Numbered from the stretch's first letter, positions 8,174 to 54,532 are shown. The stretch: 64,000 bases of DNA from Adlercreutzia sp. ZJ176 (GCF_011038975.1 NZ_JAAKEC010000015.1:18501-82500); one strand, 5' to 3'. Notes: a model not told the origin generated them from the letters alone. Program-made: numbers and translations.

Positions 8174-9766
8174 ATGACTGATCCAACCGCATCTGCAACC
8201 GCATCTGCCCGCCGCTCCAACGTTTCCGCCCCGCGCGCGACGGCCCGCGCCGCCCGCCCGCGCGATCCCCGCCGCGCCGCCGCCCGCCGCCTCTTCGTCG
8301 GCGCGCTCATGGCGCTCGCGCTTCTGTGCGGCGCCGTGCTGGCGCAGGCCGCCCAGCCCTCAGAGGCGCTGGCGCTCGACACCGCCAAGTGCACCGCGCG
8401 CCCCAACGGCGACACGGGCTCGGAGGTCTACGGCGCCACCGAGACGCGCGTCACCTGGGAGGGCCAGGCCGCCCCCGACGAGTCGCTGACCGCCCTCGAG
8501 CTCACCATGCCCGAAGGGACCACCTTCGGCCTGGACGACGCGCGCGTGATGCTGCTGTCGGGCGACAACCTCATGACGCGCGACATCCCCGACGTCGAGT
8601 TCTCCGCTGACGGCGAGACGCTGCGCGCCGTGTTCGCCGAGCCGACGGTCCCCGGTTCCTACGTGCGCGTCGAGGTGTACGAGGTGTTCTTCCCCGCGGA
8701 GGGCGGGGCCATGGGCTTTTCTGGCTCCTACACCACTGCCGAGGGCGACACGCTGCCCATCGACGACGTCACGCCCATCCAGGTGACGGGCAAGAGCGCG
8801 TTCGACCAGCTGGTGAGCAACCTCGAGCAGCAGGAATGGGTGAAGCAGTGGAACTCCAACAAGTTCCTGCGCCTGTTCTTCAACCCGCCGCTCATCGTGT
8901 CGAGCATCCCCGTGGTGTTCAACGGCTTCCTCATGGCCATCGGCATCGTGGCCGTGGCGTTCCCCGTGGCCATCCCCATCGGCCTCCTCCTGGCGCTCAT
9001 GCGCATGTCGAAGTGGCGCGTGCTGCGCGGCATCGCCACCACGTACGTGAACGTCGTCCGCGGCACGCCGCTGTTCCTGCAGATCTACATTGCGTTCTTC
9101 GGCCTGCCGCTGGCGGGCGTGCAGATCCCGTCGTTCCCGCTCGGCGTGATTGTGCTGTCGATGAACTCGGCGGCGTACCTGTGCGAGATCTTCCGCGCGG
9201 GCATCCAGTCCATCCCGAAGGGGCAGTTCGAGGCGTCGCGCAGCCTCGGCATGAACGGCGCGCAGACCATGGTGTTCGTCATCATCCCGCAGACCGTGCG
9301 CCGCGTGATCCCCACCATGACCAGCGAGTTCATCCTGCTGTACAAGGACACCTCGATGCTGGCCGCCGTGGGCGTCATGGAGGTGGTCATGTACGCGAAG
9401 ACCATCGTGGCCTCCACGGGCTCCATTACGCCCTACATTGTGGCCGCGTGCTTCTACCTGATCGTCACGCTGCCGCTGGCGAAGGTGGTCGGGAAGCTCG
9501 AGAGCCGCCTGGCGGGCACGGCGGCGCCGAAGAAGCGCAGGAAGAAGGGCGCGGGCGCCGTGGCGAGCGCGGCAGGCGCAGGCGCTGCGGGAGCGGGCGC
9601 GTGTGCGGGCGCGGGCGCGAGCGTGGGCGTGACGGGCACCGACTCGGCGGGCGTCACGGGGCTCGCGACCGACGTGCTCACCGCGCAGCCGCTGCTCAAG
9701 AACGAGCTCGGCGACGGCTTGGGCGGCTTTGGCGACCACAGCTTCGGCATGAAGAACACGAAGTAG
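8174..9766 (+). CDS. Amino-acid ABC transporter permease with a ~270-aa N-terminal extracytoplasmic domain and low-complexity C-tail
   Basis: N-terminal TM ([18 protein letters not shown]), then ~250 aa with no TM segments, then a His/Gln-type permease core ([13 protein letters not shown]...[16 protein letters not shown]...[21 protein letters not shown]), and a C-terminal Gly/Ala-rich tail. Confidence 0.8.
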
Positions 9767-32746: not shown

Positions 32747-32944
32747 TAATCGAGGAGCGGGCCCTCTCGCCGAGAGGGCCCGCATTTTTATTTCGCGCGT
32801 AATGCCTGGTCAGGGGCGATTGCTACCAGAGGTTGCGCAAAATGGCCCAAAATGGATATCAGAGTTGCTGGCAGGTGGCTGGACGCTACCGTAATCTGGG
32901 GAAGCGAGATCGACATGACCATCACGAAAAGGAGAGGCTTCCGC

Positions 32945-33808
32945 ATGAACATAGAGATAGCCCCGCGCCTTGCCAGCTTGCGGCGGGAGAAGGGCCTGAG
33001 CCAGGAGGAGCTTGCCGCGCAGCTGGGCGTGTCGCGGCAGGCCGTGTCGAAGTGGGAGCGCGGCGAGGCGGCGCCCGACACGGGCAACCTCGTAGCGCTC
33101 GCCGACCTCTACGAGGTAACGCTCGACCAGCTCGTGCGCGGGGAGGAGGGGAGAGCGCAGGCGCAGAAGGAGACCGAAGCGCAGGGCCAGGAGGAGGAGG
33201 ATCAGGCTCAGGTTCAGGCGCAGACGCAGGCTCGGAGGCAGGTCCAGTCGCAGGACCAGGCCCAAGAGGCGCGCGTCTCCGCGCAATCCGACGCGTCGCC
33301 CCTTCCCGCCCCGTCCGAGCCGGCGCCCTCTGCGCCTGCGCCTGCGCCGCATGATGAGCTGCAGGATGAGCCGCAGGGCGGGCTGCGAGGGGAGCTGGAG
33401 CACGTGGCTCCCGCACCCGTTGCGTCCGCAGCTGCACCGCAGCCTGCCGCTGCGCCTGTGCTGGTACCCGCAGCTGCGCCGCAGCCCGTCCCCGCGCCCG
33501 CGCCGCAGCCTGCGCCGATGCCCACGCCGACGCCCGCTCCCGCGCTACATCCTGCGCCGATGCCCGCGCCCGCGCCGCAGCCCGCGCCGACATCGGCCGC
33601 TCCCGCTCCCACGCGCTCCTCGCGTGGCGCGTGGCGCTCCTTTCCCTACCCGGTGGCGTGCCTTCTGTTCTACCTGCTGACGGGGTGCCTGTTCGGATGG
33701 TGGCACCCGGGGTGGCTCGTGTTCCTCACCATCCCGCTGTACTACTGGATCGCGCGCATCATCGAGGATGACCCGAACTATCGCGCCGAGCACAACGGAC
33801 AGGGGTAG
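32945..33808 (+). CDS. XRE-family HTH regulator fused to Pro/Ala/Gln-rich linker and C-terminal 2-TM membrane domain
   Basis: LASLRREKGLSQEELAAQLGVSRQAVSKWERGEAAPD is an HTH_XRE fold. Then ~170 aa of low complexity, then WRSFPYPVACLLFYLLTGCLFGWWHPGWLVFLTIPLYYWI. RBS AAAGGAGAGG. Confidence 0.75.
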   Translation: MNIEIAPRLASLRREKGLSQEELAAQLGVSRQAVSKWERGEAAPDTGNLVALADLYEVTLDQLVRGEEGRAQAQKETEAQGQEEEDQAQVQAQTQARRQVQSQDQAQEARVSAQSDASPLPAPSEPAPSAPAPAPHDELQDEPQGGLRGELEHVAPAPVASAAAPQPAAAPVLVPAAAPQPVPAPAPQPAPMPTPTPAPALHPAPMPAPAPQPAPTSAAPAPTRSSRGAWRSFPYPVACLLFYLLTGCLFGWWHPGWLVFLTIPLYYWIARIIEDDPNYRAEHNGQG

Positions 33809-33813
33809 GAGCC

Positions 33814-34716
33814 ATGACCAAGCTGACGAAGGAATCACGCAACAAGATCGTCGCCATCGTGGCGTGCGGGGTGCTCGTGATCGGCGGGCTGGGCGCCTGC
33901 ATGACGAGCTGGGCGCATCGGGGGCCGTGGGGCCTGTGGGCCGCGCCTGCGCCGGCGGGCGAGACCGCCGCGAACACGACGGAAGTCTCCACCAGGTACG
34001 TCGATGCGAGTGAGGTGCGCTCGCTCGACATCGACTGGGCGGCGGGCTCGGTCATCGTGCGCGTAGCGGACGACGGCGAGACGGACGGCCAGGTCAAGCT
34101 CGTGGAGCGGCAGACGGGCGCGATCGCGCGCTCGCAGCAGATGCAGTGGTCGGCCTCGAACGGGCTGCTGAGCGTGCGGTACGGCATGCCGAGGGGCTTC
34201 TTCGGCTGCATGGCCGTGAACGGCGTGAGGCACCTGGAGGTGGTCATCCCGCGCAGCGCGGCCGGCGAGCTGGCCACGGTGAAGGTCAACGGCGCGTCGG
34301 GCTCCTACGACCTGTCGGGGCTCTCATGCGAGACGCTGCGCCTCAACGTGGGGTCGGGTGGCGTCAAGGTGGCCGACGTGCGAGCCGACGTGCTCGACCT
34401 CGGCGTGGCGAGCGGGCAGGTGGACGTCGCCGGCGTCTTCGCGCAGAGCGTGCGCGCCGACGTGGCGAGCGGTCGCGTCAGCGTGGCCTGCGAGCAGGCG
34501 ATGCCGGGCAGCGCGCGCGTCAGCGTGGCGAGCGGCCAGGTGGACCTGGCGCTTCCCGACGAAGGCGGCTTCACGGCGGTCGTGGAGAAGGTGTCGGGCT
34601 CGTTCTCGTGCGCCTTCGACGCGCGGCAGGACGGGAACACCTACGTCTACGGCGATGGGAAGGCGCGCCTCGACTTCAGCGTCATAAGCGGCCGCGTCGC
34701 GCTCAACGCCCGCTAG
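33814..34716 (+). CDS. DUF4097-family beta-repeat protein (putative envelope-stress/adhesin-like, LiaG/YvlB-type)
   Basis: N-terminal TM, then repeated V-x-V-x-S-G strands (VASGQVDVAG...VASGRVSVAC...VASGQVDLAL). Confidence 0.65.
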   Translation: MTKLTKESRNKIVAIVACGVLVIGGLGACMTSWAHRGPWGLWAAPAPAGETAANTTEVSTRYVDASEVRSLDIDWAAGSVIVRVADDGETDGQVKLVERQTGAIARSQQMQWSASNGLLSVRYGMPRGFFGCMAVNGVRHLEVVIPRSAAGELATVKVNGASGSYDLSGLSCETLRLNVGSGGVKVADVRADVLDLGVASGQVDVAGVFAQSVRADVASGRVSVACEQAMPGSARVSVASGQVDLALPDEGGFTAVVEKVSGSFSCAFDARQDGNTYVYGDGKARLDFSVISGRVALNAR

Positions 34717-35586: not shown

Positions 35587-35606
35587 AATTGTCCTAGGAT
35601 AATCAG
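35587..35606. promoter_or_regulatory. AT-rich near-palindromic motif AAATTGTCCTAGGATAATCA (copy 1 of a shared 17-mer)
   Basis: 17 of 18 nt identical to 39492-39510. Centred on a CCTAGG palindrome. Lies in the divergent intergenic region upstream of the NrfD-like/GntR/SPFH block. Confidence 0.45.
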
Positions 35607-36666: not shown

Positions 36667-37152
36667 GTGTTTCCCTTCGAAGTCGACGAGCAAAGCGATC
36701 TGCCCCTGTGGGTGCAGCTACGGCAACGGTTGATCTACTTGATCAATTCGGGCTACTTCAAGCCAGGTGACCAGCTGCCCACGGTGCGCGGGCTGGCATC
36801 GGACATATCTATCAACTACAACACGGTGAACAAGGCGTATCTGAGCCTGGTGTCCGACGGCTACTTGGAGTCTGCGCGCGGGCGTGGCGTGTTCGTGCGC
36901 GACCTTGCGGCTGAGGTGGGTGAAGAATTCGGGCAAGACGTTGAGGCCGTGATGGATGAGTTCATCAATACATGCCGTGATTTGGGATTGAACTATGACG
37001 ATATGCTGGCGCGTATCACGCATCGCGTCAAGCAGCGCAAGTTTGAGGAAGCGCATGTGGCGCAGGGCGGCATGCCGGGTGGTCGCGGGCGCATCGTGGA
37101 AGTTGAGGTAGGCGTGCGGAAGGGAGGCGACCATGCGGCGTTCGGAGGATAA
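36667..37152 (+). CDS. GntR-family transcriptional regulator (YtrA-like short form)
   Basis: LPLWVQLRQRLIYLINSGYFKPGDQLPTVRGLASDISINYNTVNKAYLSLVSDGYLESARGRGVFV is a GntR winged HTH. Confidence 0.85.
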   Translation: MFPFEVDEQSDLPLWVQLRQRLIYLINSGYFKPGDQLPTVRGLASDISINYNTVNKAYLSLVSDGYLESARGRGVFVRDLAAEVGEEFGQDVEAVMDEFINTCRDLGLNYDDMLARITHRVKQRKFEEAHVAQGGMPGGRGRIVEVEVGVRKGGDHAAFGG

Positions 37153-38176
37153 GGCGGGCATGCCTGCGGGTGGAGGGCGTGCGTCGCGGGGAGCTGATGC
37201 GGGCGTTGCGGGCGGCGATGCGAGCAGCGTTGGGCGGACGGCGCGGCGTTCGTGGCGCGTGGTGCCCGACAGCCAAAGCGGCTACGCATATACCGAGGTA
37301 ACGGGCGAGCGGGCGTCGAGCGCAGGCGTGCTGCTGTTCTCGACGGTGGTCTTCGCGGTGGTTTTTGTCGTGGCGTTGGGCGCGGTATATCTGGTTGCGG
37401 GCGGGATCGGTCTCGTGGGTATCGCCGTAGCGGTTGTGGCGGCGGCGCTCATGACGTGCTCGGTGCACATCGCGCAGGAGTGGGAACGCGTGGTGGTGCT
37501 GCGATTCGGCAAGTTCAACCGCGTGTCAGGGCCGGGTTTGTTCTGGACGTTTCCCGTGATCGAGCAAAACACCATGCGTGTTGACACGCGCGTGCGCGTG
37601 ACCACCTTTGGCGCCGAGGAGACGCTTACGAGCGATCTGGTGCCGCTTGACGTGAACGCGGTTCTGTTCTGGCACGTGTGGGATGCGAAGTCGGCATGTC
37701 TCGAGGTGGGAGACTTTACGCGTGCTGTTGAGCTGGCGGCGCAGACGGCCCTGCGCGACGCCATAGGGCGCGGCGGAGCTGCTGAGGTGGCCATTCGCCG
37801 TCAGCAGCTCGACCGCGAGCTCAAGCACATGCTTGAAGAGAAGGTGGCGCCGTGGGGCGTGACCGTGCTGTCCGTTGAGATTCGCGACATCCTCATGCCG
37901 TGCGATCTGCAGGACGTGATGTCGCTCGAGGCCCAGGCTGAGCAGCGCAAGAAGGCGCGCATCATCCTCATGGAAGCCGAGCAGGACATCTGCGAGATGG
38001 TGGGCGAGATGGGCGCGGCTTACGCCGAGAATGACGTCGCGCTGCGCCTGCGTGCCATGCACTTGCTTTATGAGAGCATTCGCGAGACCGGTGGCACCGT
38101 GGTGGTTCCCTCAAGCTTTAGCGAAGGTTTCGGTGACATCTTGGGAGAGGCTGGAAAGGCTCCCTTCGTGAGGTAG
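37133..38176 (+). CDS. SPFH/band-7 (stomatin/HflK-like) membrane protein
   Basis: N-terminal TM, then the SPFH core (VVVLRFGKFNRVSGPGLFWTFPVIE...TSDLVPLDVNAVLFWHVWD...). The start could be the ATG at 37160. Confidence 0.8.
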   Translation: MRRSEDKAGMPAGGGRASRGADAGVAGGDASSVGRTARRSWRVVPDSQSGYAYTEVTGERASSAGVLLFSTVVFAVVFVVALGAVYLVAGGIGLVGIAVAVVAAALMTCSVHIAQEWERVVVLRFGKFNRVSGPGLFWTFPVIEQNTMRVDTRVRVTTFGAEETLTSDLVPLDVNAVLFWHVWDAKSACLEVGDFTRAVELAAQTALRDAIGRGGAAEVAIRRQQLDRELKHMLEEKVAPWGVTVLSVEIRDILMPCDLQDVMSLEAQAEQRKKARIILMEAEQDICEMVGEMGAAYAENDVALRLRAMHLLYESIRETGGTVVVPSSFSEGFGDILGEAGKAPFVR

Positions 38177-38284
38177 CCCAGGTAGCGTTGGAGTTGGGAT
38201 GGTAGGGGAAGGCTCCTCTGGGATCATGCCTCGTGCTATAATCGCTTTGCGCTTGGTACCAAGCGATTGGCGAAAGGAGCGTCT

Positions 38285-38890
38285 ATGACGCAATCGACGT
38301 TGGCCAACCCCCAAACCGTTCGCATCTCCAGCAAGCGGCAGATCACCATTCCCTCGAAGCTTTACAAGAAGAAGGGCTTCACTGAGTATGCGTGGGTTGA
38401 GGAAACCGAAGACGGCCTGCTCATCAAGCCAATCGACGTTGAAGACGAGGATGTCTCGCTGTTTGTGCTGCGCCAGCTGGTTGCGGCGGGCTTTGAGGGC
38501 GAGGAGCTCGTCAATCGCTACCAGGAGGCATGTCCGCGCGTGGTGAGCGTGCGGCCTTTGGCAGCGGAAAAGCACCCGGCGTCTTCTGGCGAGTGCGTGC
38601 GCGAGGCTGTCGCTCAAGCTGCCGCTGCGTTTCCCGCAATCAGGAAGGCGTATCTGTTCGGCTCGTTCGCGCGGGGAACCTTCGACGACGAGAGTGACGT
38701 TGACGTGCGCATCGAGTACGATGCTGGCGGCTCGTTCAGCTTGCGCGAGCTCGCGCAGTTCCAGAAGCGCATTGAGCGGGCTACGGGTCGCGAGGTTGAC
38801 GTGGTGTCGGCGAGGCGGCTGAAGAACCGAAGTCTCGAGGCGGCGATTGAGAGGGAGAAGGTGCTCGTCTATGAGCGCGAAGAGCAGTGA
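38285..38890 (+). CDS. Fusion protein: N-terminal AbrB/SpoVT-like swapped-hairpin domain plus C-terminal MNT-type minimal nucleotidyltransferase (MntA-like antitoxin)
   Basis: N-terminus RISSKRQITIPSKLYKKKGF (AbrB/MazE-like). C-terminus KAYLFGSFARGTFDDESDVDVRIEY (GSxxRG...DxD NTase motif). AAGGAG RBS. Confidence 0.7.
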   Translation: MTQSTLANPQTVRISSKRQITIPSKLYKKKGFTEYAWVEETEDGLLIKPIDVEDEDVSLFVLRQLVAAGFEGEELVNRYQEACPRVVSVRPLAAEKHPASSGECVREAVAQAAAAFPAIRKAYLFGSFARGTFDDESDVDVRIEYDAGGSFSLRELAQFQKRIERATGREVDVVSARRLKNRSLEAAIEREKVLVYEREEQ

Positions 38891-39248
38891 CCTTGCGCGA
38901 CTGCAGGAGATCTACGACGTGATAACGCAGACCAAACGCCAGATGAGGGCGCTTGGCATCACGCGGGAGCGCTTTCTTAGCCCAAAGGACGATCAGGACG
39001 ATTTGGTGGCAGAAGGCGTCATGAACCGCGTGTTTCGCGTGACCGAAGAGGCGGGGCATCTCTCCGAAGAGGTTGTGGAGCAGTACGGGTTTGATCGCCG
39101 CGGCGTGCTGGGCGTGCGCAACCGCTTAGCCCATGCCTATGGAGACGTTGATCGGGAGATCATCTGGCTTGTTGTGGAAGACGACTTCGACGCCCTGCTG
39201 AGGTCATGCCAGAGGTATTGCGACGACAACGGCCTTGAGCTCGAATAG
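38871..39248 (+). CDS. HepT-like (DUF86) RNase toxin
   Basis: GVLGVRNRLAHAYGDVD contains the R-x4-H-x-Y HepT active-site motif. The start overlaps the 3' end of the MNT gene. Confidence 0.75.
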   Translation: MSAKSSDLARLQEIYDVITQTKRQMRALGITRERFLSPKDDQDDLVAEGVMNRVFRVTEEAGHLSEEVVEQYGFDRRGVLGVRNRLAHAYGDVDREIIWLVVEDDFDALLRSCQRYCDDNGLELE

Positions 39249-39491
39249 CCGTCGGTGCCGGTGCGGGTCCTCGACGCCGGTGTCAGTGCTGATGCTGATG
39301 CTGATGCCAGTGTTGCTGATGATGCCGGTGCCAGCGTCAGGCATCTTTTTCCAGCGCTGTTGATGCTGGCCAGCTTGCGGTTCGCTGCGCTCTCATGGCG
39401 AGGGCCTTTTGGAAGCGAGGCTGCAAGAGACGTCTGCGTGTGAGGTTCTCGTTCGCAAAGCTCTCGCCTGTAAAACGTCTCTGTCTCTCAA

Positions 39492-39529
39492 AAATTGTCC
39501 TATGATAATTCTTGATTGTCATAGGACAA
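39492..39529. promoter_or_regulatory. AT-rich motif AAATTGTCCTATGATAATT (copy 2) forming an 11-bp inverted repeat with TCATAGGACAA
   Basis: attgtcctatga at 39494-39505 pairs with tcataggacaat at 39519-39530. Sits ~230 bp upstream of the molybdoenzyme operon in a low-GC patch. Confidence 0.45.
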
Positions 39530-39753
39530 TCCTGCTATAGTAACCTCAATGGAATTTGGCCGATTCTATCGTGACGTAAAGAGGTGGATGGCTTCGAGGA
39601 GTTGTCCACGAGGGGCATCGGTAGTTCGAGCCTTAAGCCAGGTGGCATGCGCAGCTGTCTGACGAAGGGGAGAGCGAGGCGGAACGCAGGAAGAGGTGGG
39701 CGTTTTGCCCAATGCGTTCAGCAAGAGATGCTTCGCCAATTCTAGGAGGAGAA

Positions 39754-42168
39754 ATGTCAACAGCGAACAGCTCGCGAGGCGGGCTCACGCGTCGAAGCTT
39801 TCTCAAGACGGCAGGGGCAGCGGCTGGCGCCGTCGGCCTTGCGGGCGCTGCCAGCATGACCAGCACGAGCGGCTGGCTGGCCCCGGCCCAGGCTCACGCC
39901 GAGCCCGAAGAGCGCGTAGCGTACACGTTCCACTATCGTCATTGCCAATGCAACTGCCATCTGAAGTGCACCGTGCGAGATGGACGCATGGTTCTGATCG
40001 AACCCAACGACTGGCCGAATAAGCGCAATGAAACCGTCTGCCTCAAAGGGATTTCGGAAATCCAGCACACGTACAGTGCCGATCGCATCCAGGCCCCTCT
40101 TAAGCGCGTAGGGGAACGTGGCAAAGGAGAGTTCGTTCAGATTACATGGGATGAGGCGTTGGATACCATCGCTGACAAGGTGAAGGAGACTTGGGAGAAA
40201 GACGGCCCTCAAGCAATAGCCTTCCAGACGGCGGTCGACTCCCTAACCACTTTTCTGCCCAAGCTCCTAAAAGGGCAGGAGAAGCCTCGTCGCGGCATAG
40301 ATATCGGTTTGGGCAATGGATTCTCTCCGGCGTTGGCTGAGTCGGGTCAGCAGGGTGCGTCTTCCAACGAGGTAACCGACTGGAAGAACGCCAAGACCAT
40401 TCTGAACGTAGGGTGCAACATGCTTGAAACCTGCATGGTCACATCAAAGTACTTCTTCGATGCGAAGGATGCGGGTTCGGAAATCATTACGATCGATCCC
40501 AACTTCTGCACTACGGCTGCGAAGAGTTCGCGTTGGATTCCCATCGTTGCCGGGACCGATCCGGCGCTCTACTTGGGAATGGTGTCTGTCATTCTCGAGA
40601 AAGGTTGGTATAACGAGAGCTATCTGAAGGTAAACACGAGTATGCCCTTCTTGGTAAAGCGCTCTGACGGATCGCTTCTGAGGCGTGATATCGTGTCTGA
40701 TGCTGCTCAGACGGGTACCGAGAACCCCTTTATGGTTTGGGATGAAGGGACGGAATCAGTTGTTGAGTACCTGGCGAACGGCGTTTCTCCAGCGTTAGAG
40801 CACGAAGCAGTCGTTGATGGTGAGGCTTACGCCACGGTATTTTCCCTGTTGAAAGAGAATCAGCGGCAGTATACGGTCGCGTGGGCCTCTGAGCTTACAG
40901 GCATTGCGGAGGAGACGCTTGTTGAACTGGCGGACAAATATGCTAACCACGGTCCTTCCATTCTCTCGTTTGGATTCGGTGGCGGCGAGAAGTTCTACAA
41001 CGCTGATGTGGCTGGCCACGCAGCAGTTTTACTTGCGACGCTCGTGGGCTCCTTCGGGACGGACGTTCCTGGTTGGGGCGCTGGTGCCTACGTGAACTCG
41101 TACCAGAAGATATTCGGCGCGGGCAAGTTTGCGAGTTGGCCTTTGCCGAGCGAGTGCAAGACCGCAAAAGCCGCCAAAGGCAGCGTAGACTGCCGAGATG
41201 ACAAAAGCGGCATCAAGTTCCTGTGGGCGCAAAATGGAGCGTTTCAGCAAGTTGCGGGAAACCAGAATCGAACCGACGAGTGGGCTCGGAGCCTTGATTT
41301 CATTGTCGTTCAGGATATTTGGCATACGCCGACGGTCGACTGGGCTGACATCGTTCTACCAGTCTGCTCTCATTTTGAGTGTGACGAGGAAATTGGCTTC
41401 GTTCGAGCCTTGCGAGGGCACGTTCTTCTGCAGCAAAGAGTCCTCGATCCCTTGTTCGAGAGCAAAACAGACTTCTGGATCGAGCGTGAGATGGCGAAAC
41501 GTCTCGGCTATGGCGACAGCATGCCCGCAAGTCAAGAAGAGCTTACCCGGTTCCAGCTAGAGAACTCCACTGACAAAGCCGTCGCAGGTATAACGCTCGA
41601 TGAGGTCGTTGCGAGCAAAGGTGTTGTGGCATTGAGAAATCAGCCCGAGATAGCACGCAGCTACAGCGGCCAGACTTATAAGACGAAGTCTGGGAAGATA
41701 GACGTGTACTATGAGGATCTCGTGAGCTATGGGCAAGCGCTTCCCACTTGGGAAGCTCCGCACGAGGCGTATGCGGGCAACGTTCTGCGGGAGCGATACC
41801 CGCTCCATATGACGCAGCGCCGATCGAGGTATTTCGTTCATCAGAACTTCATGGATGCGACGTGGATTCGCCAACACTACGATCCCGCCGTCGAGATGAA
41901 CCCTATCGACTTGGCTGCGCGCGGCTTGGTCTCAGGTGATACGGTTGAGGTGTTCAACGACAGGGGCTCGTTCAAGTGTGAATGCGTGGCGACGGAGGCT
42001 GTCTGTCCCGGTATGGCGATCATCGTTGAAGGCGTATGGCCAAAGTTCATGGTCGAGGGTAACTTGCAGAATGTGACGAACGATGCGGTGAACCCGAGGG
42101 GCAAGGCGCTTGCGAAGGGACGGGTCATTCCTTTCAATGACACGCTTGTTGAAGTCAAGAAAGCATAG
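39754..42168 (+). CDS. Molybdopterin (bis-MGD) oxidoreductase catalytic subunit, DMSO-reductase family, TAT-exported
   Basis: Twin-arginine signal RRSFLKTAGAAAGAVGLAGAA. N-terminal Fe-S Cys motif HCQCNCHLKCTVRDGRMV. MopB and C-terminal molybdopterin dinucleotide-binding regions. GGAGGAG RBS. Confidence 0.85.
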   Translation: MSTANSSRGGLTRRSFLKTAGAAAGAVGLAGAASMTSTSGWLAPAQAHAEPEERVAYTFHYRHCQCNCHLKCTVRDGRMVLIEPNDWPNKRNETVCLKGISEIQHTYSADRIQAPLKRVGERGKGEFVQITWDEALDTIADKVKETWEKDGPQAIAFQTAVDSLTTFLPKLLKGQEKPRRGIDIGLGNGFSPALAESGQQGASSNEVTDWKNAKTILNVGCNMLETCMVTSKYFFDAKDAGSEIITIDPNFCTTAAKSSRWIPIVAGTDPALYLGMVSVILEKGWYNESYLKVNTSMPFLVKRSDGSLLRRDIVSDAAQTGTENPFMVWDEGTESVVEYLANGVSPALEHEAVVDGEAYATVFSLLKENQRQYTVAWASELTGIAEETLVELADKYANHGPSILSFGFGGGEKFYNADVAGHAAVLLATLVGSFGTDVPGWGAGAYVNSYQKIFGAGKFASWPLPSECKTAKAAKGSVDCRDDKSGIKFLWAQNGAFQQVAGNQNRTDEWARSLDFIVVQDIWHTPTVDWADIVLPVCSHFECDEEIGFVRALRGHVLLQQRVLDPLFESKTDFWIEREMAKRLGYGDSMPASQEELTRFQLENSTDKAVAGITLDEVVASKGVVALRNQPEIARSYSGQTYKTKSGKIDVYYEDLVSYGQALPTWEAPHEAYAGNVLRERYPLHMTQRRSRYFVHQNFMDATWIRQHYDPAVEMNPIDLAARGLVSGDTVEVFNDRGSFKCECVATEAVCPGMAIIVEGVWPKFMVEGNLQNVTNDAVNPRGKALAKGRVIPFNDTLVEVKKA

Positions 42169-42178
42169 GTGATGCGCT

Positions 42179-42796
42179 ATGACAAAATTCGGAATGGCGA
42201 TCAACCTCGATCGCTGCATGGGCTGCAATACCTGCGCCATGGCTTGCAAGATGCAAAACAACGTGCCTATGGGCATGATGTGGAACCGTGTGATTGTTGA
42301 GGGCTGCGAGAATGAGTTCGATGCGCAAGGCACCTACCCCAACCTTGCGCGCACCTATCTCCCCATAGCTTGTCAGCATTGCGAAAACCCCGCGTGTCAG
42401 CGCGTGTGTCCGACGGGCGCTACGTACAAGGACGATAAGGGGCGCGTGCAGATCGACTACGACAAGTGCATCGGCTGTCGCATGTGCATGGCGGCCTGCC
42501 CCTACAACGCTCGCGTGTTCAACTGGAATGATCCGGTTCGCGACCCAGATTTCTGCTACGGGGATGCAGGCGTGCCGGTGCGATCCAAGGGCGTAATGGA
42601 GAAATGCACCATGTGCAAGGAGCGCACTGACCGTGGCGACGAGCCGATGTGCGTGCGCTGTTGCCCTGCGGAGGCTCGCACCTTCGGGGACCTCGATGAT
42701 CCGAGTTCCGAGGTTTCCCGCCTTATCCGCGAGAAGAGCGCCTACGTCCTGCTGCCCGAGCAGGGCACGCGCCCGCAAGTCCGTTATTTCAACTGA
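42179..42796 (+). CDS. 4Fe-4S ferredoxin-type electron-transfer subunit (DmsB/PsrB-like)
   Basis: Four Cys clusters (CMGCNTCAMAC, CQHCENPACQRVCP, CIGCRMCMAACP, CTMCKER...CVRCCP). Confidence 0.85.
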   Translation: MTKFGMAINLDRCMGCNTCAMACKMQNNVPMGMMWNRVIVEGCENEFDAQGTYPNLARTYLPIACQHCENPACQRVCPTGATYKDDKGRVQIDYDKCIGCRMCMAACPYNARVFNWNDPVRDPDFCYGDAGVPVRSKGVMEKCTMCKERTDRGDEPMCVRCCPAEARTFGDLDDPSSEVSRLIREKSAYVLLPEQGTRPQVRYFN

Positions 42797-42809
42797 GGGG
42801 GTGCTTGGA

Positions 42810-44051
42810 ATGCAAACTGCTTCACCTAAGTTCAAGATTGTCGCGGGCGTGCTCGGCGTGCTGACGGCGGCCGGCGTAGCCGCGTGGATTTACCAGCTCA
42901 TGGGCGGCCTCGGAGTCACCGGCATGAACAACGGCACGTCGTGGGGCCTCTACATCACCATGTTCATGCTGTTCGTGGGCCTTTCAGCCGGCGGCCTGAT
43001 CGTAGCCTCCTCGGCGAGCGTGTTCCACATCACGAAGTTCAAGGCCGTGGCCCTGCCCGCCATCATCCTGTCGACGGTGTGCATCTGCGCGGCCGGCATG
43101 TTCGTGCTCATCGACATGGGCGGCATCCAGCGCGTGTGGCGCATCGTCACCGGGCCGAACCCCACGTCCCCGCTGCTCTGGGATATGTGCGTGATCACCG
43201 TCTACCTGGTGCTCAACATTCTGTACCTGCTGTTCATGACCAGGTATGGCGTCGACTCCCGCAAAGTCGAGGTCGTCTCGCGTTTCGCCCTGCCAGCCGC
43301 CATCCTGGTGCACTCCGTGACGGCGTGGATTTTCGGCCTGCAGCTGGCGAAAGAGTGGTACTCGGCCATCATGGCGCCTATCTTCGTGGCGTCGGCCATG
43401 GACTCGGGACTCGCGCTTCTGCTGGTGGTGCTCGTGGCGCTTGACGCCGCAGGATGGTTCAAGTTTTCACGCGAGCTCATGAAGTCACTCGCGGGGCTGC
43501 TTGCAACTTGCATCGCGATCGACGCGTTCTTCATCGGCTGCGAGGTGCTCACCATGGCATATCCGGGCGCGAGGGGCGCCGAGGCACTGTCCATCATGCT
43601 TGGTGGTGCTACTGCCCCGTTCTTCTGGTTCGAGATCGTTGGCGGTCTGCTCGTGCCCTTCTGCGTGTTGGTGTTCGCGAAGAACCGCGCCAACGTGAAG
43701 CTCGTGGTGGCCTCGAGCGTACTGGTGGTTCTGGGCGTGCTGTGCAAGCGCGTATGGCTGCTGTTCACGAGCTTCGTGGTGCCGAACGTCTATGGCGCAC
43801 CGGGTATCGCGAGCGGCTCGTCGGCTGCTGCGCATGCGACCGGCGTCGATATGTGGGCGGCGACCAGCTCGTACGCGCCCACGTGGGTTGAGCTCGTGGT
43901 GGTTGCGGGCGTGCTGGCGCTCGGTGCGCTGGTGTTCATGCTGCTCGCTCGCAAAATGCTGGTTGAGGGAGGCGGCAAGAAGAAGGCGCAGGTCGCCTCG
44001 GCCGTCAGAAAGGAAGCTGCTTCAGCTGCTGGGGCTGAGGCTTCCGCCTAG
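42810..44051 (+). CDS. NrfD/PsrC-family membrane anchor subunit
   Basis: 413 aa with ~10 TM segments. WGLYITMFMLFVGLSAGGLIVA is the NrfD signature. It immediately follows the Fe-S subunit. Confidence 0.8.
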   Translation: MQTASPKFKIVAGVLGVLTAAGVAAWIYQLMGGLGVTGMNNGTSWGLYITMFMLFVGLSAGGLIVASSASVFHITKFKAVALPAIILSTVCICAAGMFVLIDMGGIQRVWRIVTGPNPTSPLLWDMCVITVYLVLNILYLLFMTRYGVDSRKVEVVSRFALPAAILVHSVTAWIFGLQLAKEWYSAIMAPIFVASAMDSGLALLLVVLVALDAAGWFKFSRELMKSLAGLLATCIAIDAFFIGCEVLTMAYPGARGAEALSIMLGGATAPFFWFEIVGGLLVPFCVLVFAKNRANVKLVVASSVLVVLGVLCKRVWLLFTSFVVPNVYGAPGIASGSSAAAHATGVDMWAATSSYAPTWVELVVVAGVLALGALVFMLLARKMLVEGGGKKKAQVASAVRKEAASAAGAEASA

Positions 44052-44330
44052 GATTCGGCCTGCCGTTCTTCCGGCTGCCATCCCTGCCGGGTTTTGCCTT
44101 CCCGGCTTGATGGCGCCTTCGTCCTTTCTGGCTTAGCGGGCAAGCACCCTTGCCCACCCTGATTCGACAGACAAGCCCTCCTGCCCTCCTCGGGCTTGTC
44201 TGTCGGCTTCCTCGCTTTTCCCTTTTCCGGCGAGGAGGGCCGTAATTGCGGCTTTTCGCAGTTGCGGCCTTTAGATGAGGCATGCCCTCCTGTGCCGTTC
44301 AGAAGCTCCTATCGAAGAGAAGGTTTCACT

Positions 44331-45104
44331 ATGCTCTACTCGCAAGATTGGCAAACGCTTTCCGCGGCATATGCTTTTATCGGGAACTCCCTGCTTACGC
44401 CCATGAACCAAACATCTCACGAGGGGGCAGACCCTGAGTTCTGGGTTTCCTTCCCCGACTTTGCCGACGGGGCCGTGCGCGCTGCGGCTGACAATCTCAG
44501 CGAATGGGCGCGCCGTGCCGGAGAGGCCGGTGAGGACGCTGCTGTGCAGAAGGCTGCCGTGGAGCACACTCACCTGTTCGTGGGTCCGCCCAAGCCGGCT
44601 GCTGCTCCTTGGGAGGCCTTTCACCGGGGCTCTTCTGAGGTGAGTGTGGGCTTCGGTCAGGCCACTTATGAGATGCGCGCGTTGTTGCGAGAGGCGGGCC
44701 TTGAGTTGTCGGGTCCGTCTAACCAGTATGAGGACCATATGGGCGTGGAGCTGCTTTTGCTCTCGGAGCTGTGCCGTCGAGCTGCTGAGGCTGCGTCGGC
44801 GCGACGGGCGGCTGGTCCCGAAGCCGGGTTTGCCTCTGCCCTCGAATCTGAAGCCGTGCTTGATTCCGGGTCCGATCAAGCCGCCAAGCCCGGCCTTGCT
44901 TCTGGTTCCGCCTCAACTGCCGAGTCTGCCGATGAGCTTTTTTCCTTAGAGGCGCAAGTGCGCACGTTCATCGAGGAGCATCCTCGGGCTTGGGTGGGCC
45001 GCCTCATTGAGGCCGTGCGTGCCGATGCCCCGTGCGGCTATGTTGATGGCTTGTTGGGTTTGGAGCGGGCTCTGCTTGAGTGGCATAGGCGGCAGCTTGC
45101 CTGA
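44331..45104 (+). CDS. TorD/DmsD-family redox enzyme maturation chaperone
   Basis: AAYAFIGNSLLTPMN...HTHLFVGP...EDHMGVELLLLSEL...VRTFIEEHPRAWVGRL fits the TorD-like pattern. It is placed 3' of the oxidoreductase operon. Confidence 0.65.
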   Translation: MLYSQDWQTLSAAYAFIGNSLLTPMNQTSHEGADPEFWVSFPDFADGAVRAAADNLSEWARRAGEAGEDAAVQKAAVEHTHLFVGPPKPAAAPWEAFHRGSSEVSVGFGQATYEMRALLREAGLELSGPSNQYEDHMGVELLLLSELCRRAAEAASARRAAGPEAGFASALESEAVLDSGSDQAAKPGLASGSASTAESADELFSLEAQVRTFIEEHPRAWVGRLIEAVRADAPCGYVDGLLGLERALLEWHRRQLA

Positions 45105-45310: not shown

Positions 45311-45952
45311 TTGGCGCACTGCTTGGATGTTGTTCGCATGCTGCTTGACCTGCGTGTTTCATGCGAAGGGCAGCAGCATGCCACAGCGTTTGCTCCAAAT
45401 GGCGAGATCGCGGCGTTGATCCGCCATGTTCCCGCTGAATTTCTGCGGAGATTTGCCATATATCTGCTAGATTTAGACGTGCTTTTCGATGGCGCCGCGC
45501 CGCGACGGGCGCTTGCGCAAGTTCACGACGGCTCCGCTTCGCCTCGTGAGACCGACCTGGTGATGCGCATAGCGCTTCCAAGCAAGTGGGGAGGCTACGG
45601 CATTGGCGGAGCGCGGCTGAACCATCGCATTGAGATGGGTGCTCGAGCTCAGTCGCAGACGAGCCAGAGCTATTATGTAGCCGATATGTGCTGGCCGGAG
45701 AAGAAGCTGGTCGTTGAATACGACTCCGACCTTCACCTCACCTCGTCGGGGATCGCCCATGATGCCGCGAAGCGTCGCGCGCTGGAAGCAGCCGGATACA
45801 AAGTCATCACGGTGACCAGGCTCCAGCTTGACAGCCTGCTGGAGATGGACCGGATTGCGCGGGCGATAGCTCGCCATCTGGGGATTCGCCTTCGCCCGCA
45901 AGCTGCTGACTTCAAGCAGCGTCAAAGCGCCCTGTTCTCCGCTCGGGCATAG
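45311..45952 (+). CDS. DUF559 (Vsr-like endonuclease fold) domain protein, possibly a remnant
   Basis: The C-terminus LVVEYDSDLHLTSSGIAHDAAKRRALEAAGYKVITVTRLQL is DUF559. The N-terminal portion is poorly defined. Confidence 0.45.
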   Translation: MAHCLDVVRMLLDLRVSCEGQQHATAFAPNGEIAALIRHVPAEFLRRFAIYLLDLDVLFDGAAPRRALAQVHDGSASPRETDLVMRIALPSKWGGYGIGGARLNHRIEMGARAQSQTSQSYYVADMCWPEKKLVVEYDSDLHLTSSGIAHDAAKRRALEAAGYKVITVTRLQLDSLLEMDRIARAIARHLGIRLRPQAADFKQRQSALFSARA

Positions 45953-46589: not shown

Positions 46590-50126
<3,537 letters not shown>

Positions 50127-50128
50127 AG

Positions 50129-54532
<4,404 letters not shown>

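Follow-up and report, generated by a model that had tools for sequence, protein, structure and literature searches.

A stretch of 64,000 nucleotides from the gut bacterium Adlercreutzia sp. ZJ176 (NZ_JAAKEC010000015.1:18501-82500; hereafter the window, with positions counted from its first letter) carries a four-gene molybdoenzyme operon, ABCD, whose promoter holds a pair of palindromic boxes, and upstream of it an operon of three further genes, nrfD2-gntR-SPFH, whose promoter holds a single box of the same kind. We think it likely that these genes form one conserved seven-gene respiratory cassette of the Eggerthellaceae, with both promoters repressed by the candidate autoregulated GntR-family protein that the cassette itself encodes. 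The products of ABCD are predicted from their genes to form an outward-facing, menaquinol-linked molybdoenzyme, exported by twin-arginine translocation (TAT) and held at the membrane by an NrfD-family anchor. Eggerthellaceae possess tens of unassigned respiratory reductases for host, dietary and drug molecules, and those that are known are mostly paired with LuxR-type regulators; the present cassette is distinctive in its place in the core genome, its family-wide spread and what is apparently another kind of regulatory circuit. Its operator and candidate repressor provide a handle on the inducer, which would in turn point to the substrate.

Operator boxes and their candidate regulator

The initial annotation of this DNA had described an 11-bp inverted repeat ahead of the catalytic gene. 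The repeat is real and longer than stated, with arms of 16 nt (the strings quoted were themselves 12-mers) that are complementary at 15 of 16 positions across a 5-nt gap, either arm being pseudo-palindromic in its own right. Treated as two boxes, the arms start 21 bp apart, or about two helical turns, which places both on the same face of the DNA. A second site, said to share the left half of the repeat and to lie at 35587, also exists, one base further along, and what it shares is the whole 16-mer. The consensus of the 16-bp boxes is ATTRTCMTAKGAYAAT; allowing up to three mismatches to the motif ATTGTCCTAKGAYAAT, 0.16 sites would be expected in the window and three are seen with none or one mismatch, a count reached by none of 100 shuffles. 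At the reductase promoter, which is sigma-70-like with a TG preceding its -10 hexamer, box 2 overlaps the final 3 nt of the -35 hexamer and occupies most of the spacer; as the hexamer straddles the CYTTG spacer and box 2, it is box 2 that fills the interval between -35 and -10. At the upstream promoter a TACAAT hexamer lies 8 nt upstream of the single box, which contains GATAAT. One other box-like 16-mer, ATTGAACTATGACGAT at 36987-37002, was considered as an operator and judged to be a chance occurrence, having three mismatches and lying inside gntR codons (LNYDD) whose peptide is unconserved in orthologues. It resembles the box variant of two related loci, L003 and L008, described below.

Conservation among relatives gives these boxes much of their weight. 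In an alignment of eight orthologous promoters, drawn from Adlercreutzia, Gordonibacter, Paraeggerthella, Rubneribacter and one metagenome-assembled genome (MAG), the invariant columns are those of box 1, the CYTTG spacer, box 2, TTGATT, TATAGT and a GGCC element, 3' of which conservation collapses; the -35/-10 spacer is 18 nt in the window and 17 nt in the other aligned promoters. The operator role proposed for the repeat is supported by the orthologous promoters, for the pair stands at the same place and spacing in at least five genera. The same architecture, with two to four boxes, recurs in Slackia equolifaciens (three boxes at 15- and 21-bp spacing) and in further loci, among them L018 with four, the core there being TCCTAGGA or TCATAGGA. 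The single box upstream of nrfD2 (ATTGTCTTAKGATAAT) is likewise conserved at the same place, beside TACAAT, in nine other loci, and these two promoter positions are the only places where the box occurs in about 320 kb of related loci.

The genes show the same constancy. Of 16 related loci, 14 have nrfD2-gntR-SPFH immediately ahead of ABCD, among them S. equolifaciens and loci whose catalytic subunit A is merely 46-49% identical; those that do not are a copy in Rubneribacter (L006) and a Proteocatella contig, in which a methyl-accepting chemotaxis protein gene stands upstream of the operon and moaA, mobA, mobB, moeA and moaC adjoin it downstream. All seven genes, with boxes at the same two places, are found in Gordonibacter, Paraeggerthella, Slackia, Rubneribacter and gut MAGs. 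An NCBI protein listed under 'unclassified Adlercreutzia' matches subunit A at 100% identity, and homologues at 77-81% identity occur in Gordonibacter, Paraeggerthella, Raoultibacter, Rubneribacter and gut MAGs; when a functional name was sought among members of the A family, the source names were all generic. In the window rpoB and rpoC follow the cassette, and in L018 it adjoins nusG-rplK-rplA, a proximity to rpoBC or rplKA that indicates a core-genome location.

The common dedicated regulator that the initial annotation had postulated now has a candidate in the product of gntR. The GntR model PF00392 covers residues 17-77 of its 161 amino acids (aa) and is the sole domain found; its best NCBIfam matches, the Rv1152 family (62 bits, cut-off 170) and PmtR (51 bits, cut-off 200), fall well short. 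The recognition helix and wing INYNTVNKAYLSLVSDGYLES pair with the canonical box, those of L003 and L008 (NTVSKVYQD.ERDGYI) with ATTGAACTAKT-type boxes, and L011 combines a third helix, NTVSKAFMALEREGYIV, with a GTGTCGCATTACAC inverted repeat that flanks the -35 hexamer. In L006, the second Rubneribacter copy, which has no adjacent triad, the boxes (9330-9410) are altered to TTGTCGTGCGACA and keep their 21-bp spacing. As the box sequence changes where the recognition helix of GntR changes, this GntR is the probable autoregulated repressor. In Raoultibacter (L008, 21628-22399) a divergent GntR and box accompany an operon of 81% identity, and a second triad with a canonical box lies 9 kb downstream; that two-cassette genomes keep distinct operators suggests insulation between paralogous circuits. 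At its C-terminus GntR ends, after a low-complexity linker, in a conserved G-R-I-V-E/K-V/I-D/E-V motif. Proteins of the canonical-box group retain this motif, which might serve a partner as a docking peptide, and the short variants of L003 and L008 (131 aa) lack it.

A circuit consistent with these features can be outlined. Subunit A, predicted to carry a molybdenum-bis(pyranopterin guanine dinucleotide) cofactor (Mo-bisPGD) and the FS0 iron-sulfur cluster, would be exported by the TAT route with the aid of chaperone D and wired through the ferredoxin subunit B to the NrfD anchor C. Indirect signs that A binds this cofactor are its dedicated TorD-type chaperone and, in Proteocatella, the molybdenum cofactor (Moco) biosynthesis genes next to the operon. 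Transcription of ABCD would start from the sigma-70-like promoter with box 2 inside its spacer, and dimers of the YtrA-like GntR, to judge by position, synteny and co-variation, would bind each box, probably cooperatively at the pair, repressing both the reductase promoter and that of nrfD2-gntR-SPFH and so its own synthesis. GntR proteins of the YtrA subfamily have no ligand-binding domain, stand in operons with membrane proteins and act on palindromic operators that include a self-regulatory site. Since the present GntR is of this type and is translationally coupled to two membrane-protein genes (its start codon comes immediately after the nrfD2 stop, and the SPFH start overlaps its end by 20 nt), the relieving signal may be relayed by NrfD2, the SPFH protein or both rather than bound by GntR itself, and de-repression might then raise all seven genes together.

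The catalytic subunit and its molybdenum ligand

The four genes that the initial annotation had named (catalytic subunit, ferredoxin, NrfD anchor and TorD-like chaperone) are present on Pfam and Cys-motif evidence, and both motifs it had read in A, RRSFLK of the TAT signal and HCQCNCHLKC of FS0, were confirmed; the FS0 ligands H60, C64, C68, C72 and C96 are invariant across 115 homologues. Subunit A matches Molybdopterin PF00384 (4.8e-40) and Molydop_binding PF01568 (5.8e-17), with the TAT_signal and Molybdop_Fe4S4 models slightly under cut-off (PF04879 at 21.3 against 22.7 bits). No NCBIfam equivalog came near its cut-off for A: dmsA_ynfE TIGR02166 scored 290 against 778 bits, mainly over residues 367-803, PhsA 201 against 694, TtrA 65 against 1750, ArrA 90 against 1600 and TorA 122 against 909. 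Run against the PDB, the family profile found PcrA (best), PsrA, FdhA, EbdA and TorA/DorA at 215-293 bits. An AlphaFold2 model of A (pLDDT 88.1, pTM 0.87) had all its leading fold matches in the Mo-bisPGD/dimethyl sulfoxide (DMSO) reductase family, with TM-scores of 0.78-0.80 for PcrA (21-22% identity), 0.75-0.78 for Nxr, 0.77 for EbdA, 0.71 for PsrA and about 0.70 for the S-/N-oxide reductases MtsZ, TorA and DorA. Among N-terminal halves scored against the family profile, DmsA reached 204 bits, PcrA 153, PsrA 149, EbdA 134, Dadh 132 (its N-terminal 430 aa only, taken from a supplementary table of PMC11887054), a Gordonibacter-type dehydroxylase-like protein 122 and NarG 69, and unnamed metagenomic representatives 285-354. 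An exhaustive search showed a clear gap in score: the family, some 27 full-length clusters at 50% identity, lies above 880 bits, and no other sequence exceeds 600.

By these comparisons A is a member of an uncharacterised clade without a close characterised relative. The word 'uncharacterised' in the initial annotation was thus apt: A clusters with no characterised enzyme, lies far below the NCBIfam cut-offs and is only about 20% identical to the best structures. 'PsrABC-type' describes the subunit architecture well and the catalytic subunit badly, A being without the Psr-type Cys and closest in fold to Asp-type enzymes. 'Periplasm-facing' needs a similar correction, for the module is there and the organism is a monoderm, so that the outer face of the cell membrane must be meant. 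A hint at catechol dehydroxylation was not supported, the N-terminal half of Dadh matching no better than those of DmsA, PcrA and PsrA; its lower score places the A family outside the catechol dehydroxylase clade.

The ligand loop of the family reads G181-I-D183-x-G-x-G-N188-G and holds no conserved Cys or Ser. Alignments by HMMER and by three modes of MAFFT put N188 opposite both the Asp ligand of NarG, PcrA and EbdA and the Cys of an Fdh, and F190, a position at which the family has Phe, Leu or Tyr, opposite S205, the Ser ligand of DmsA. A few family members have Asp, Ser, Cys or Gly in column 188, which is variable in 84 more distant representatives; these keep D183, G189 and G195, and Asp183 is invariant in the family. 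As D183 is kept while column 188 varies, Asp183 is the conservative candidate and probably the Mo ligand, with N188 as either a ligand or a second-sphere residue. A firm claim of Asn-ligated molybdenum was tried and dropped, weakened by that variability and by the invariant D183 in the distant representatives. The loop, with no conserved Cys, makes A unlike Psr, and by this criterion A is neither of the Cys type (Psr, Phs, Ttr, Arr, Dadh) nor of the Ser type (Dms, Tor); as predicted from its fold and its partners, A is type II-like and is paired with a ferredoxin of the Psr/Dms type and an NrfD anchor. As for the acceptor, the most cautious guess would be a small molecule, either an S-/N-oxide or an oxyanion.

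Exchange of the catalytic domain

The sister strain Adlercreutzia sp. ZJ242 (L015) is syntenic throughout, and its identity to the window is 98.5% for rpoB (nucleotide) and, at the protein level, 96% for GntR, 94% for C, 92% for SPFH, 87% for B and 68% for A. Sliding nucleotide identity is 0.94 over the first 180 nt of A, which encode the TAT signal, 0.53-0.73 over 39935-42130, rising through B at 0.77-0.85, and 0.91-0.95 in C. The window's A is nearer to those of Gordonibacter and Raoultibacter (81%) than to that of ZJ242, and its gene has a G+C content of 0.556 against 0.62-0.63 in its neighbours. As A is divergent while C, GntR and the TAT signal match ZJ242, the mature catalytic domain appears to have been exchanged on a conserved chassis. 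Spearman correlations of pairwise identities over 15 loci are 0.65 for A with B, 0.16-0.33 for A with C, SPFH, GntR and NrfD2, and 0.91 for GntR with SPFH; identity is 45-50% between the discrete classes into which the A subunits divide, and B and C remain at about 60-87%. NrfD2 was considered as a sensor co-evolving with A and rejected, because it correlates at 0.33 with A and at 0.65-0.68 with C, GntR and SPFH.

Residues 1-50 of A (39754-39900), comprising the TAT signal and GWLAPA.AHAE, are unusually conserved across these classes, with R13, R14, F16, K18, W41 and A47 invariant, a pattern that fits putative co-evolution with the chaperone and use as a recombination flank. An exchange limited to the catalytic domain, seen between sister strains, suggests how specificity may diversify in the Eggerthellaceae. 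A bolder extension, which we hold to be doubtful, would make the cassette a modular platform in which a conserved chassis (promoter, TAT signal, ferredoxin, anchor and chaperone) accepts interchangeable catalytic domains that differ in specificity, the NrfD-like and SPFH proteins act as a split transmembrane sensor that holds or releases a ligand-blind YtrA-type repressor, and Asn188 occupies the canonical ligand position of an unusual Mo site.

Alternative readings

Several points weigh against an autoregulated GntR circuit serving this enzyme. The link between GntR and the boxes is drawn from position, synteny and co-variation; the window is 64 kb of a genome, and other regulators that recognise the box, or other members of its regulon, may lie elsewhere. 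The roles given to NrfD2 and SPFH are speculative, and both could simply belong to the respiratory complex, as additional subunits or as scaffolds. The same type of regulator and operator accompanies A subunits only 45-50% identical (L010, L012 and L018), and as the identity of A does not track that of NrfD2, GntR or SPFH, the signal may be something other than the enzyme's substrate. For the enzyme, it is N188 and not D183 that the alignment puts on the Asp ligand of NarG, PcrA and EbdA. One could suppose that some other regulator, with its gene elsewhere, occupies the boxes (perhaps a global one for anaerobiosis or redox state), and that the adjacent GntR controls something else or only itself. 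L006, which keeps a box-like pair without the adjacent triad, speaks for such an arrangement, as does the second conserved palindrome at the transcript start, where at least one further factor or structure would act; we nevertheless find it improbable, because the GntR operon's own promoter carries a box (in nine loci), the box varies together with the GntR recognition helix, its TTGTC...GACAA core fits the GT-Nx-AC pattern that operators of the GntR family follow, and an occurrence at two promoters alone in 320 kb of related loci is ill-suited to a global regulator. We give almost no credence to the 37-bp inverted repeat being a hairpin (a HepT terminator or an attenuator) or a mobile-element or recombination site instead of a protein operator. 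A long AT-rich hairpin would indeed form, in a place that follows an inserted toxin-antitoxin pair and precedes a catalytic gene exchanged by recombination, yet there is no T-run, the single box at 35588 has no hairpin partner, neither the three differently spaced boxes of Slackia nor the four of L018 form a single hairpin, loci that lack the toxin-antitoxin insertion have boxes as well, and the recombination tract starts about 400 nt downstream, past the signal peptide.

With repression by the adjacent GntR kept as the preferred account of the promoters, the enzyme has rivals of its own. It could be functionally ordinary, a sulfoxide or N-oxide reductase equivalent to DmsABC and divergent in sequence alone, which we rate as unlikely. 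E. coli DmsA gives the top score among characterised enzymes, both by its N-terminal half and through TIGR02166, the FS0 spacing C-x3-C-x3-C is DmsA-like, and E. lenta respires DMSO, methionine sulfoxide and S-methylcysteine sulfoxide via tungstate-sensitive enzymes, whose genes were not assigned in the paper that reported it. The 290 bits of TIGR02166 are nevertheless far from the family cut-off of 778, a hydrophobic residue stands where DmsA has its Ser ligand, the membrane subunit is of the NrfD and not the DmsC kind, the best folds are PcrA, Nxr and EbdA and not DorA or TorA, and the presence of A subunits 45-50% identical on the same chassis suggests several specificities. We regard it as very improbable that the enzyme, like Dadh, Cadh and Hcdh, dehydroxylates catechols: the bacterial family, the TAT signal and the 4Fe-4S partner with its membrane anchor are as in the E. 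lenta enzymes, but Dadh scores below DmsA, PcrA and PsrA in the N-terminal comparison, its FS0 (CCRGCGKMEC) and Cys loop (QICKGPR) differ from the H-x3-C-x3-C-x3-C and Cys-free loop of the present family, acetylene hydratase ranks only 17th by profile and 38th by fold, A has 804 aa against 1017, and no membrane-spanning LuxR-type regulator is adjacent.

Layout of the cassette and its surroundings

Table 1. Features of the cassette, its promoters and the neighbouring genes (positions in the window).
Feature	Position	Strand	Remarks
Single operator box ATTGTCCTAGGATAAT, nrfD2-gntR-SPFH promoter	35588-35603	.	14/16 self-complementary
nrfD2, NrfD/PsrC-family paralogue, 323 aa, ~8 predicted transmembrane helices	35695-36666	+	Pfam NrfD 4.4e-27
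gntR, 161-aa GntR-family regulator, short C-terminal part (YtrA-like)	36667-37152	+	Pfam GntR 1.1e-14
SPFH/Band 7 (HflK-like) membrane protein, N-terminal transmembrane segment at ~residues 64-105	37133-38176	+	Band_7 1e-32
Operator box 1, ATTGTCCTATGATAAT	39494-39509	.	kept in orthologous promoters
Operator box 2, ATTGTCATAGGACAAT	39515-39530	.	start-to-start 21 bp from box 1
Sigma-70-like promoter: TTGATT (39512-39517), 18-nt spacer, TATAGT (39536-39541)	39512-39541	+	
GGCC-centred palindrome GAATTTGGCCGATTC	39552-39566	+	one per locus, same place, 13 loci
A, Mo-bisPGD catalytic subunit, 804 aa	39754-42168	+	Pfam, motifs
B, ferredoxin subunit, 205 aa, four [4Fe-4S] motifs, without signal peptide	42179-42796	+	
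C, NrfD-family membrane anchor, 413 aa, ~10 predicted transmembrane helices	42810-44051	+	NrfD 9.6e-40
D, TorD/DmsD/NarJ-family maturation chaperone, 257 aa	44331-45104	+	Nitrate_red_del 3.7e-23
XRE-type helix-turn-helix protein and DUF4097 'toastrack' protein	32852-34716		upstream
MNT nucleotidyltransferase/HepT toxin-antitoxin pair	38267-39248		between SPFH gene and reductase promoter
Repeat after HepT	39276-39334		period 6 within period 24
DUF559 (Vsr-like endonuclease fold)	45311-45952		downstream
rpoB	46590-50126		follows cassette
rpoC	50129-54532		follows cassette

Some of the starts in Table 1 are choices. The full open reading frame of A is 39712-42168, and its likely start is the ATG at 39754, ten bases after AGGAGGAG, which gives the N-terminus MSTANSSRGGLTRRSFLK. 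For nrfD2 the mechanical frame begins at TTG 35659 and the likely start is GTG 35695, behind GGAGGGAGG, the resulting 323 aa matching the sister-strain annotation; the start codon of D is uncertain, its mechanical frame beginning at 44196. Named homologues of NrfD2 are exclusively from Eggerthellaceae. Subunit B scores 193 bits with DsrO, 190 with ArrB and 135 with DmsB, all below cut-off.

Beyond the reductase promoter lies a second conserved element, GAATTNGGCCRATTC, found once per locus 10-13 nt past the -10 hexamer with an invariant GGCC centre, and hence at about +3 to +20 of the transcript. Across 13 loci its stem of 6 bp is maintained, the arms showing compensatory changes, and G.U pairs far outnumber A.C; the hairpins it would form are worth -2 to -8.5 kcal/mol, no better than shuffles. 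The kept stem speaks for a stable RNA hairpin and the weak folds speak against one, and the copy in the window may serve as a further site for protein binding or form a weak 5' stem-loop. A riboswitch or other known RNA in the 205-nt leader was discarded, the fold of the whole leader having z = -1.2 with no Rfam match; no Rfam family reached its gathering score anywhere in the window, and a search of 39440-39800 at E up to 5 returned noise only.

The MNT/HepT pair inserted ahead of the reductase promoter occurs only in the window and in ZJ242, where it replaces a AAAATAGAATAAT element that other genera carry 5' of box 1; MNT has a match in PDC-S09, a candidate defence family. The repeat that follows HepT consists of TGCTGA x3.5 (period 6) inside a period-24 array of 2.5 copies and is largely missing in the sister strain (111 gap columns in the alignment). 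The XRE/DUF4097 and DUF559 genes on either side are common to ZJ242 and not to other genera, and diverge from ZJ242 more than does the rpoB flank.

Comparison with known systems

Literature searches returned nothing linking Gordonibacter, molybdopterin and GntR, and nothing relevant on an Asn Mo ligand or an assigned E. lenta sulfoxide reductase; the supplementary tables of the E. lenta respiration paper hold no GntR, NrfD or Band 7 entry. Genetic tools exist for both Gordonibacter and E. lenta (PMC9734109, PMC11887054).

In its overall plan the reductase resembles PsrABC/PhsABC, as represented by Thermus thermophilus PsrABC (2VPW), with which it shares a TAT-exported Mo-bisPGD and FS0 subunit, a four-cluster ferredoxin, an NrfD-family quinol-oxidising anchor and an outward-facing disposition. 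It differs in that PsrA is only about 22% identical to A, the Psr-type Cys is not conserved in the A loop, PhsA scores well below its cut-off (201 against 694 bits), the anchor has about 10 predicted helices and a chaperone is encoded in the operon. Type II Asp-ligated enzymes (PcrAB, 4YDD; ethylbenzene dehydrogenase, 2IVF; Nxr; NarG) provide the best fold and PDB profile matches to A and share with it an FS0 that starts with His (H-x3-C-x3-C) and an invariant Asp (D183) in the ligand loop. However, A is only 16-22% identical to them, the residue aligned to their Asp ligand is Asn188 with the invariant Asp five residues earlier, and in place of a NarH-like beta and a haem-b gamma subunit there is a small Psr/Dms-type ferredoxin with NrfD; B scores only 105 bits against a cut-off of 480 with the type II beta model DMSO_red_II_bet (TIGR03478), and 79 against 524 with narH. 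With E. coli DmsABC-DmsD the cassette has in common a B of 205 aa, the annotated length of DmsB, a TorD/DmsD-family chaperone and the C-x3-C-x3-C FS0; it is set apart by a hydrophobic residue in A at the position of the Ser ligand, by NrfD instead of DmsC, and by local candidate regulation through GntR, whereas E. coli DmsABC is regulated by FNR, NarL and ModE.

Closer in taxonomy are the Eggerthella catechol dehydroxylase clusters (Dadh, Cadh, Hcdh), which belong to the same family and likewise combine an extracytoplasmic molybdoenzyme, ferredoxin, anchor and chaperone with a dedicated neighbouring regulator. That class is defined operationally, as enzymes nearer to Dadh and acetylene hydratase than to other characterised molybdoenzymes (PMC7028382), and its members are TAT enzymes of about 1000 aa or, in Gordonibacter, small and soluble; membrane-spanning LuxR-type regulators are encoded next to most reductase genes of E. 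lenta. Here the catalytic clade is another, and a cytoplasmic YtrA-like GntR with an NrfD paralogue and an SPFH protein stands where those clusters have a transmembrane LuxR-type protein. The candidate repressor itself is akin to YtrA-subfamily GntR proteins (the Rv1152 family of Mycobacterium, PmtR of Staphylococcus, YtrA of Bacillus) in its winged helix-turn-helix and short C-terminal part, and unlike them in scoring below the equivalog cut-offs, in having NrfD-family and SPFH partners instead of an ABC transporter, and in a proposed target that is a respiratory molybdoenzyme operon. Set beside the known reductases of the Eggerthellaceae, the cassette thus represents a different regulatory solution on a different catalytic clade.

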